Sequence record: PV857777.1 | DNA from: Escherichia phage Ec_O157kw | DNA length: 64,000 nucleotides | Reading direction: 5' to 3' (one strand) | Shown: piece after piece, positions 45,076 through 46,372 of the stretch | Layout of the letters: each line of letters starts with the position of its first letter | How positions within the stretch are numbered: position 1 is the first letter of the stretch | Notes under the pieces: generated by a model | Database searches by the model: none | What the model was told of the DNA's origin: nothing | What the model saw: the letters and a program-made list of their open reading frames with translations, nothing else | Program-made: the position numbers and the translations under genes

Positions 45076-46104
45076 ATGTCATCAATACCTTGGATTGATA
45101 ATGAGTTTGCGTATCGTGCATTAGCTCATTTACCTAAATTCACACAAGTAAATAATAGTTCAACTTTTAAATTACGGTTTAGATGTCCTGTTTGTGGAGA
45201 TTCAAAAACCGACCAGAATAAAGCTCGTGGATGGTATTATGGTGATAATAATGAAGGAAATATTCATTGTTATAACTGTAACTATCATGCACCAATCGGA
45301 ATATATTTAAAGGAGTTTGAACCTGATTTATATCGTGAGTATATCTTTGAAATAAGAAAAGAAAAAGGTAAAAGTCGTCCAGTAGAAAAACCTAAAGAAC
45401 TTCCTAAACAACCTGAGAAGAAAATAATTAAATCTCTTCCGTCATGCGTTAGATTAGATAAACTGGCGGAAGACCATCCAATTATAAAATATGTAAAAGC
45501 CCGTTGTATTCCAAAGGATAAATGGAAATATCTTTGGTTTACAACTGAATGGCCTAAATTAGTTAATAGTATAGCGCCAGGAACATATAAAAAGGAAATA
45601 CCTGAGCCTCGTCTTGTTATTCCAATTTATAATGCTAATGGAAAAGCCGAGTCTTTTCAAGGCCGTGCGTTAAAGAAAGATGCTCCTCAAAAATATATCA
45701 CCATCAAAGCTTATCCTGAGGCAACAAAAATCTATGGAGTCGAACGAGTTAAAGACGGTGATGTATATGTTCTAGAAGGACCTATAGATTCACTTTTTAT
45801 TGAAAATGGTATAGCTATTACAGGTGGTCAATTAGACCTAGAAATTGTTCCATTTAAAGATAGACGTGTATGGGTTTTAGATAATGAACCTCGTCACCCT
45901 GACACTATTAAACGAATGACTAAATTAGTTGATGCAGGAGAAAGGGTTATGTTTTGGGATAAATCTCCCTGGAAATCAAAAGATGTTAATGATATGATTA
46001 GAAAGGAAGGTGCAACCCCTGAACAAATTATGGAATATATGAGAAATAATACTGCCCAGGGGTTGATGGCTAAAATGCGGTTATCTAAATATGCTAAGAT
46101 TTAA
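45076..46104 (+). CDS. 61: DNA primase gp61
   Basis: 342 aa; zinc ribbon CPVCG...CYNC and TOPRIM region; matches T4 gp61. Confidence 0.93.
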   Translation: MSSIPWIDNEFAYRALAHLPKFTQVNNSSTFKLRFRCPVCGDSKTDQNKARGWYYGDNNEGNIHCYNCNYHAPIGIYLKEFEPDLYREYIFEIRKEKGKSRPVEKPKELPKQPEKKIIKSLPSCVRLDKLAEDHPIIKYVKARCIPKDKWKYLWFTTEWPKLVNSIAPGTYKKEIPEPRLVIPIYNANGKAESFQGRALKKDAPQKYITIKAYPEATKIYGVERVKDGDVYVLEGPIDSLFIENGIAITGGQLDLEIVPFKDRRVWVLDNEPRHPDTIKRMTKLVDAGERVMFWDKSPWKSKDVNDMIRKEGATPEQIMEYMRNNTAQGLMAKMRLSKYAKI

Positions 46105-46301
46105 ATTAACCCAACTAAAGCAAATGCTAAATCTACGAATGTATCAAGAGTAATTACTGGAATATTAACACCATGAGCAATAGCAATTGGTGATAAAACA
46201 AAATTCCAAAGTAAAATTCCTACCATAGCAGAAATAGTAAAAGCTATACGTTTTTTATTACCTTTTATGGCATTAACAAGTGCCATTAATTTTTGTACCA
46301 T
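46101..46301 (-). CDS. Antisense small membrane protein (2 TM)
   Basis: 66 aa MVQKLMALVNAIKGNKKRIAFTISAMVGILLWNFVLSPIAIAHGVNIPVITLDTFVDLAFALVGLI; strong SD AAGGAGG 4 nt before ATG on minus strand; convergent with gene 61. Confidence 0.45.
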   Translation of the reverse strand: MVQKLMALVNAIKGNKKRIAFTISAMVGILLWNFVLSPIAIAHGVNIPVITLDTFVDLAFALVGLI

Positions 46302-46312
46302 ATGTCCTCCTT

Positions 46313-46338
46313 ATTGCTTTATATATTTATTGTATAAT
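46313..46338 (+). promoter_or_regulatory. Candidate T4 middle promoter (MotA box + -10) for gene 56
   Basis: ATTGCTTTA (MotA-box-like TGCTTtA) at 46313-21 and TATAAT at 46333-38. Confidence 0.4.
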
Positions 46339-46372
46339 TAATCTACTAACCCATGAATCGAAAGGAAAAATA

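Follow-up and report, generated by a model that had tools for sequence, protein, structure and literature searches.

What is a very small gene doing on the opposite strand between two early genes of a T4-type phage, and is its presence connected with the absence of the methyltransferase gene dam? This question is raised by the interval between genes 61 and 56 in 64,000 nucleotides (nt) of Escherichia phage Ec_O157kw (PV857777.1). We refer to this entire stretch as the window, and use its positions as coordinates. The interval carries, on the minus strand, an open reading frame (ORF) of 66 amino acids (aa). An earlier reading of the same DNA, made from the letters alone (the original prediction), described an interval of about 270 bp that encodes a two-transmembrane protein behind a strong Shine-Dalgarno sequence, AAGGAGG, and considered this arrangement unusual. 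The description was accurate with respect to the interval, which measures 268 bp from the end of gene 61 (46104) to the start of gene 56 (46373), and with respect to the ORF and its ribosome-binding site (RBS). However, the present work is mainly a correction: a reverse-strand micro-gene together with a short 61-56 interval is the standard layout of most T4-type coliphages.

Database comparisons identify the ORF as a real, conserved gene of T-even phages that encodes a small membrane protein, and as an ordinary feature of these genomes. Its product matches phrog_2024 with an E value of 5.4e-31, with residues 2-66 aligned to positions 1-65 of the 65-position profile. Five divergent relatives, from Dhaka-, Marfa-, Jiaoda-, Gapriver- and Mosig-type phages, match the same profile with E values of 1e-24 to 1e-28. 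By using tblastn, we found the ORF in 692 phage records, T4 and T2 among them, of which roughly 500 are Tequatrovirus records with at least 90% identity and about 190 lie near 50%. The divergent members of the family belong to Mosigvirus- and Gaprivervirus-type phages, and more distant, clearly related members of the same PHROG occur in Dhakavirus QL01, Marfavirus P545 and Jiaodavirus phiA85. A profile search of a 5.8-billion-protein collection recovered 116 clusters at 90% identity, with lengths of 41-73 aa (63-69 aa for full-length members). The long contigs, of about 160-175 kb, match T4-like genomes in size. The family is nevertheless narrow: in 1.84 billion representatives searched exhaustively with HMMER, only 6 clusters at 50% identity were found. 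The gene is already catalogued, as "hypothetical protein" in hundreds of genomes and as an entry in PHROGs, and was first named RB32ORF030w. The source names attached to the 116 clusters are likewise "hypothetical", except for one stray "Holin" and one plainly wrong "packaging ATPase".

Evidence that the protein itself is conserved comes from the pattern of substitutions. Pairwise ratios of nonsynonymous to synonymous change (dN/dS) are 0.1-0.4, with synonymous sites saturated between genera, and therefore selection acts on the protein. Across 31 diverse members, four residues (W32, N33, P38 and G44) show no variation, and A40, P48 and G64 are nearly invariant. The position of the gene is also conserved. 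In every locus fetched, from Tequatro-, Mosig-, Gapriver-, Dhaka-, Marfa- and Jiaodavirus, it is convergent with the primase gene, and in most of them it abuts or overlaps the primase stop codon. In the window, the two stop codons overlap within a common TTAA (46101-46104), and T4, QL01 and P545 have the same 4-nt overlap. Cases in which the gene does not abut the primase stop are vB_EcoM_RZ, in which a homing endonuclease intervenes, one further locus (L015) with an intervening 124-aa ORF, and copy a of phage VR25. The motif GGAG is found 5-7 nt upstream of the ATG in all orthologues that have their own RBS.

Duplication of the gene was observed in Gaprivervirus VR25 (positions 1995-2192 and 2201-2401 of the fetched locus) and also in TH15, where two tandem reverse-strand paralogues are separated by 9 nt. 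The second VR25 copy resembles the Dhaka-/Marfavirus subfamily. A late-type promoter box precedes only the first VR25 copy, and the pair therefore probably forms a two-gene late operon.

The relation of the ORF to dam is settled by the reference genomes. T4 has the same ORF, 95% identical, at NC_000866 17738-17938 (+), within the 309-bp gap that separates the start of dam from the stop of gene 61, and the T2 copy is at NC_054931 16642-16839. Neither NC_000866, AF158101, the 1984 record X01416 nor the T2 RefSeq record annotates it. The T4 annotation does place dam between genes 61 and 56, as the original prediction stated, and its observation that the window lacks dam is also borne out. The best tblastn match of T4 Dam in the 64-kb window has an E value of 0.05, and motifs of the form [DNS]PP[YFWH] occur there only in unrelated ORFs, none of which is methyltransferase-like. 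However, the proposal that the micro-gene takes the expected place of dam is not supported, because T4, T2 and about 180 other dam-carrying phages have the ORF as well as dam.

Alignment of the two genomes locates the difference precisely. Window positions 46050-46312, which span the ORF and its RBS, correspond to T4 17989-17725, and positions 46333-46418, starting at the -10 element of the gene 56 middle promoter, correspond to T4 16825-16740. According to this alignment, dam is a presence/absence cassette of about 0.9 kb that lies between the RBS of the ORF and the gene 56 middle promoter. The interval is not a frameshifted dam either: it aligns to the T4 flanks, and dam is cleanly absent.

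The short form of the interval is also common. At an identity of at least 80%, the ORF is present in 502 records; the 71-bp dam-less junction of the window is present in 322, and a T4-type Dam with at least 90% identity in about 182. The dam-less 61-ORF-56 junction is thus the majority form among Tequatrovirus records, about one third of which have dam, T4 included. In whole-record tblastn searches, most Tequatrovirus records have no T4-type Dam anywhere. Because dam-carrying phages have the ORF too and 322 records share the dam-less junction, comparison with the references gave the outcome that the original prediction had itself named as speaking against it, namely the same short interval with this ORF. 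The ORF is no substitute for the missing dam, and the absence of dam is a separate matter and a common polymorphism.

Other insertions were seen in this interval. In the Yersinia phage fPS-2, a homing endonuclease gene separates the middle promoter from gene 56 (fetched locus 780-1430), and the homing endonuclease of vB_EcoM_RZ mentioned above lies between the ORF and the primase gene (fetched locus 2378-3127). Since homing endonucleases occupy different points of the 61-56 interval, it appears to be a hot spot for cassette gain and loss.

If the gene is ordinary, its orientation still calls for an explanation. The plus strand carries a T4-type early gene array, and 94% of the window lies in plus-strand ORFs of 50 aa or longer. 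The 66-aa ORF is the sole minus-strand ORF in the window that both lies between plus-strand genes and matches a full-length phage protein family. Other reverse-strand ORFs that we considered (56419-56847, 58549-58965, 51366-51536 and 63230-63484) were rejected as overlap artefacts without PHROG support. In T4, early and middle transcripts have one polarity, whereas late transcripts can have either (PMC2988020). An opposite-strand position, which had been considered unusual, is therefore normal for a T4 late gene, and late transcription would account for the position of the ORF on the strand opposite to the early genes.

A candidate promoter for such transcription is found directly upstream of the ORF. 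It consists of AATAAATA, the form of the T4 late-promoter box TATAAATA with A at position -13; among the natural variants of the box, this one is the most frequent (9 of 50 listed sites; PMC2988020). For 13 orthologues, we had a gene with its own upstream region; these represent at least six genera as well as metagenomic contigs. In all 13 of these independently promoted orthologues, NATAAATA ends 12-33 nt upstream of the ATG, and three of them have a perfect TATAAATA. Position -13 is C in Gaprivervirus and the perfect T in Marfavirus-type phages. The T4 box, GATAAATA (T4 17709-17716), is located in dam-upstream sequence that is not alignable with the box of the window. Because the two boxes stand in non-homologous sequence, the element seems to be maintained independently of its context.

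The same motif is scarce elsewhere in the window. Counting both strands, ATAAATA occurs 9 times versus 40 expected, an approximately 4.5-fold depletion, and the corresponding counts are 3 versus 10.5 for TATAAATA and 3 versus 15 for AATAAATA. This depletion agrees with the idea that stray late promoters are selected against in the early region. A perfect TATAAATA at 47713-47720 (+), just upstream of soc (47752-47988), matches the annotated T4 late promoter P(L)15.32 (X01416) and was used as an internal positive control. No sigma-70-type promoter was found on the strand of the ORF. Because the box is present in every orthologue examined although the motif is 4.5-fold depleted, the 66-aa ORF is most likely a late gene. 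For T4, a differential RNA sequencing paper gives 150 phage transcription start sites, of which 22 are antisense (bioRxiv 10.1101/2024.04.04.588121).

The late box coincides with a second regulatory element. It is located inside the spacer of the gene 56 middle promoter, on the opposite strand, and the two promoters therefore overlap back to back. According to the alignment and to the annotations of X01416 and NC_000866, this middle promoter corresponds to P(M)16.53 of T4, whose transcript primes oriA, and the fPS-2 record annotates a "predicted middle promoter" at this place. The T4 spacer does not contain a late box; in T4, the late box is upstream of dam instead. A third element, an intrinsic-terminator-like hairpin on the plus strand, would end gene 61 transcripts inside the first codons of the ORF. 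This hairpin is kept in Tequatrovirus (T4 and fPS-2). We rejected the idea of its broader conservation, since it is absent from the Mosig-, Gapriver-, Dhaka-, Marfa- and Jiaodavirus orthologues. Coordinates of all these features are listed in Table 1.

Table 1. Features of the gene 61-56 region of the window
Feature	Position	Strand	Remarks
Gene 61, DNA primase, 342 aa	45076-46104	+	phrog_47, E 2e-106
66-aa ATG ORF, RB32ORF030w / phrog_2024 family, predicted small membrane protein	46101-46301	-	
Intrinsic-terminator-like hairpin	46267-46296	+	8-bp stem ATGGCATT/AGTGCCAT followed by a T-run; antisense in ORF codons 2-12
Shine-Dalgarno sequence AAGGAGG	46306-46312	-	4 nt 5' of the ATG (46301-46299)
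Junction segment	46313-46332		20 nt here versus ~0.9 kb in T4 (dam and upstream region, NC_000866 ~16826-17724)
MotA-dependent middle promoter of gene 56	46314-46338	+	mot box TTGCTTTA at 46314-46321, 11-nt spacer, -10 TATAAT at 46333-46338
Candidate late-promoter box AATAAATA	46324-46331	-	A(-13) variant of TATAAATA; ends 22 nt before the ATG
Gene 56, dCTPase/dUTPase, 172 aa	46373-46891	+	phrog_173, E 2e-46

The encoded protein is predicted to be a small inner-membrane protein. An AlphaFold2 model based on the 31-sequence alignment (pLDDT 80) has helices at residues 2-12, 16-42 and 52-63. The claim of two transmembrane (TM) segments stands only in part. Residues ~19-42 are clearly transmembrane (KD19 of 2.0), but a second span is not established: the C-terminal hydrophobic stretch is borderline, with a KD19 of 1.1-1.5 and two conserved Asp residues, and it is modelled as a helix of only 12 residues. 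The TM helix carries the invariant W32-N33 and P38, and is followed by a loop with G44 and P48 and by the acidic C-terminal helix 52-63. Since the 18 N-terminal residues have a net charge of +5 and the C-terminal part one of -2, the positive-inside rule places the N-terminus in the cytoplasm. The protein may cross the membrane once, with its short acidic helix in the periplasm or at the interface, or it may form a tight hairpin; a two-TM arrangement is possible.

We therefore favor the reading that this is an ordinary conserved T-even gene of the phrog_2024 family that is transcribed late and encodes an inner-membrane protein of 63-69 aa, to which we assign a probability of roughly 0.75. To judge from comparison with known promoters, RNA polymerase carrying gp55 would recognize the variant late promoter and start near position 46318, giving a leader of ~17 nt that includes the strong RBS. 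The transcript would run convergently into gene 61, and the early gene 61 transcript would end at the hairpin in the first codons of the ORF. The basic N-terminal helix of the protein is predicted to stay in the cytoplasm, and a single TM helix, which both the sequence and the model put at about residues 19-42, would span the membrane. The loop and the short acidic C-terminal helix would then either lie on the periplasmic side or re-enter the membrane.

What the protein does there can be proposed only tentatively. Through the invariant W-N/P/G/P motif, it might self-associate or bind a membrane partner, and it could act as a late envelope accessory in lysis timing, lysis inhibition or membrane-bound assembly, although our confidence in this is low. 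The protein would not be a holin itself. A bolder proposal is that the product of this unannotated, putatively late gene of T4 could be a component so far overlooked in lysis timing, lysis inhibition, head assembly at the membrane or another late process of the envelope, and that in relatives lacking dam, occupancy by the late transcription complex could help to switch off the gene 56 middle promoter and oriA priming. We regard this proposal as unlikely.

Several observations weigh against these interpretations. With respect to late transcription, the box departs from the consensus at -13 both in the window (A) and in T4 (G), and not every variant late-promoter site has an established activity in vivo (PMC2988020). 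A search of the 3 kb downstream of the ORF revealed no terminator on the minus strand, so that late transcription may continue into gene 61 in antisense. The gene adjoins no lysis or assembly gene, and published proteomics could not have detected its product, given that the T4 reference proteome does not include it. With respect to function, Pfam and NCBIfam scans of the ORF product and three divergent relatives found no family. A Foldseek search of PDB gave nothing meaningful, and a search of BFVD gave only the family itself together with a 63-aa protein of Enterobacter phage CIP9 at an E value of 0.06. Literature searches for the ORF name, its peptides, the PHROG identifier, and T4 Ribo-seq or unannotated small proteins returned no relevant paper, and a time-resolved T4 omics paper contains nothing at the ORF locus.

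One alternative, suggested in the original prediction, is a holin-like or another pore-forming lytic or toxic peptide. The ORF product is small and hydrophobic, and has one or two hydrophobic helices, including one clear TM segment (KD19 of 2.0; modelled helix 16-42), with a polar Asn in the middle of the membrane. The gene also has a late-promoter box, as lysis genes do, and the homologue in vB_EcoM_OE5505 is labelled "Holin" in UniRef/BFVD. However, this name was assigned automatically and stands alone among 116 clusters that are otherwise called hypothetical. T4-type phages already have holin T, the antiholins RI and RIII, and spanins, so that the role is filled by T. Moreover, the protein ends in ...DLAFALVGLI with a net charge of -2 and does not have a charged, hydrophilic C-terminal tail, its positive charges being N-terminal, and in all loci the gene lies between the primase and dCTPase genes rather than near an endolysin, that is, outside any lysis cassette. 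We consequently rate a holin-like function as quite improbable. Slightly better, but still unlikely, is a membrane protein for superinfection exclusion or host interference, resembling Imm in effect, that blocks entry of the DNA of a second phage or neutralizes a membrane-bound host defence. Like Imm, the product is a small inner-membrane protein, and its gene resides in a region rich in genes for host takeover (sp, dmd, mrh, srh and modA/B). The confinement of the family to T4-like phages of Enterobacterales, its quick divergence into subfamilies and the tandem duplicate in VR25 are typical of host-interaction genes. Nonetheless, the imm gene of the window (38038-38289, phrog_1039) gives no BLASTP alignment with the ORF product at E <= 100. 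The timing differs as well: T4 imm and sp are made early, but the ORF has only the late-type box and no detected sigma-70-like promoter on its strand.

The remaining explanations dispense with a functional protein. The locus could act through RNA, either as a late antisense transcript that silences gene 61 mRNA or as a conserved 3' untranslated region (UTR) and terminator of gene 61 in which the ORF is incidental. The ORF transcript would indeed be fully complementary to the 3' end of the gene 61 transcript, with no terminator after the ORF and with the early-strand terminator hairpin inside it, and there are sites in T4 at which both strands are known to be transcribed, at different times (PMC2988020). 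Yet the dN/dS values of 0.1-0.4 with saturated synonymous sites speak against this, as does the fact that genera too divergent for DNA alignment retain the frame, a length of 63-69 aa, a strong RBS and the invariant residues. The hairpin, in turn, is not conserved outside Tequatrovirus, and an Rfam scan of 45900-46500 on both strands gave no match. An RNA as the functional product is accordingly very unlikely, whereas the transcript may, besides encoding the protein, also affect gene 61 in antisense. Finally, the location of the interval at the position of T4 dam, and the frequency of short ORFs in AT-rich DNA, might suggest a decayed or frameshifted dam, or a chance ORF in a spacer. This explanation is already refuted by the Dam search, the dN/dS values and the T4 alignment, and retains a negligible probability. 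No similarity to Dam exists in the interval or elsewhere in the window, the T4 61-dam spacer and gene 56 promoter can be aligned base for base to the interval, T4 simply having 0.9 kb more between them, and a chance ORF does not agree with purifying selection across the family.

Three observations elsewhere in the window are independent of the 66-aa ORF. An ORF at 46866 (TTG) or 46881 (ATG) to 47717 (+), of 278-283 aa, overlaps the end of gene 56. Its product matches phrog_655 ("homing endonuclease", E 5e-33) and phrog_12434 ("HNH endonuclease"), with no Pfam match, and the ORF occupies the slot of the GIY-YIG endonuclease SegF in T4, so that a different mobile endonuclease is found at the same place. 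Upstream of gene 61, the 61.2-like gene at 43917-44549 (+; phrog_3781) and the RB32ORF033c-like gene at 44551-44907 (+; phrog_4122) match each other's PHROG, and their products share the C-terminal motif SIDDQIFNAFMN(K/R)G; they look like tandem paralogues. In addition, a putative 53-aa ORF at 23020-23181 (-) lies partly between plus-strand genes. Its last 28 residues match phrog_13445 (28 positions, E 1e-21), and a GC-rich hairpin, aaaggcccagagggccc, is located just downstream of it.

Two modest consequences follow from this analysis. The reference annotations of T4 and T2 omit a conserved gene that is under purifying selection and has a late-promoter box and a strong RBS. Because the ORF is missing from these annotations, omics studies that rely on them cannot see it. 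A narrowly distributed and putatively late membrane micro-protein with an invariant W-N/P/G/P motif also constitutes a cheap knockout target in a model phage.

Comparison with known systems helps to place the gene. The closest are the other members of PHROG 2024 (RB51 RB32ORF030w, VR25_031/032, QL01 gp028 and fPS-2 g031), which have the same length, primase-convergent position, RBS and late-type box. The window copy is a typical member that is 98-100% identical to many database entries, and nothing substantive distinguishes it. With T4 late genes, which depend on gp55, gp33 and gp45 and on TATAAATA, the ORF shares an 8-bp box at the appropriate spacing, which is followed by a short predicted leader with a strong RBS, as well as an orientation opposite to early genes, which is allowed for this class. 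It differs from the late-gene consensus in that its box is the A(-13) variant, and its late timing is predicted from this box. T4 Imm, an 83-aa, two-TM superinfection immunity protein, is also a small inner-membrane protein encoded in the same early-region neighbourhood. However, Imm has no sequence similarity to the ORF product, belongs to PHROG 1039 rather than 2024, has an early type of promoter and differs in predicted architecture. Class II or pinholin-type holins, such as S68 of phage 21 (about 70 aa, two TM segments), resemble the ORF product in size, in their hydrophobic helices and in the probable late expression of the ORF. In contrast to pinholins, the ORF product lacks a charged cytoplasmic C-terminal tail, has its positive charges at the N-terminus and a second segment that is short and acidic, and is encoded outside the lysis cassette. 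Type I toxin-antitoxin systems of the Hok/Sok kind likewise involve a small hydrophobic peptide, and the mRNA of the ORF would be complementary to the convergent gene 61 3' UTR up to the hairpin. Neither a dedicated promoter for an antisense small RNA at the ORF nor a match to an Rfam family was found. Unlike in Hok/Sok-like systems, to which the ORF has no sequence relation, the overlapping RNA is an ordinary mRNA tail that ends before the RBS of the ORF.

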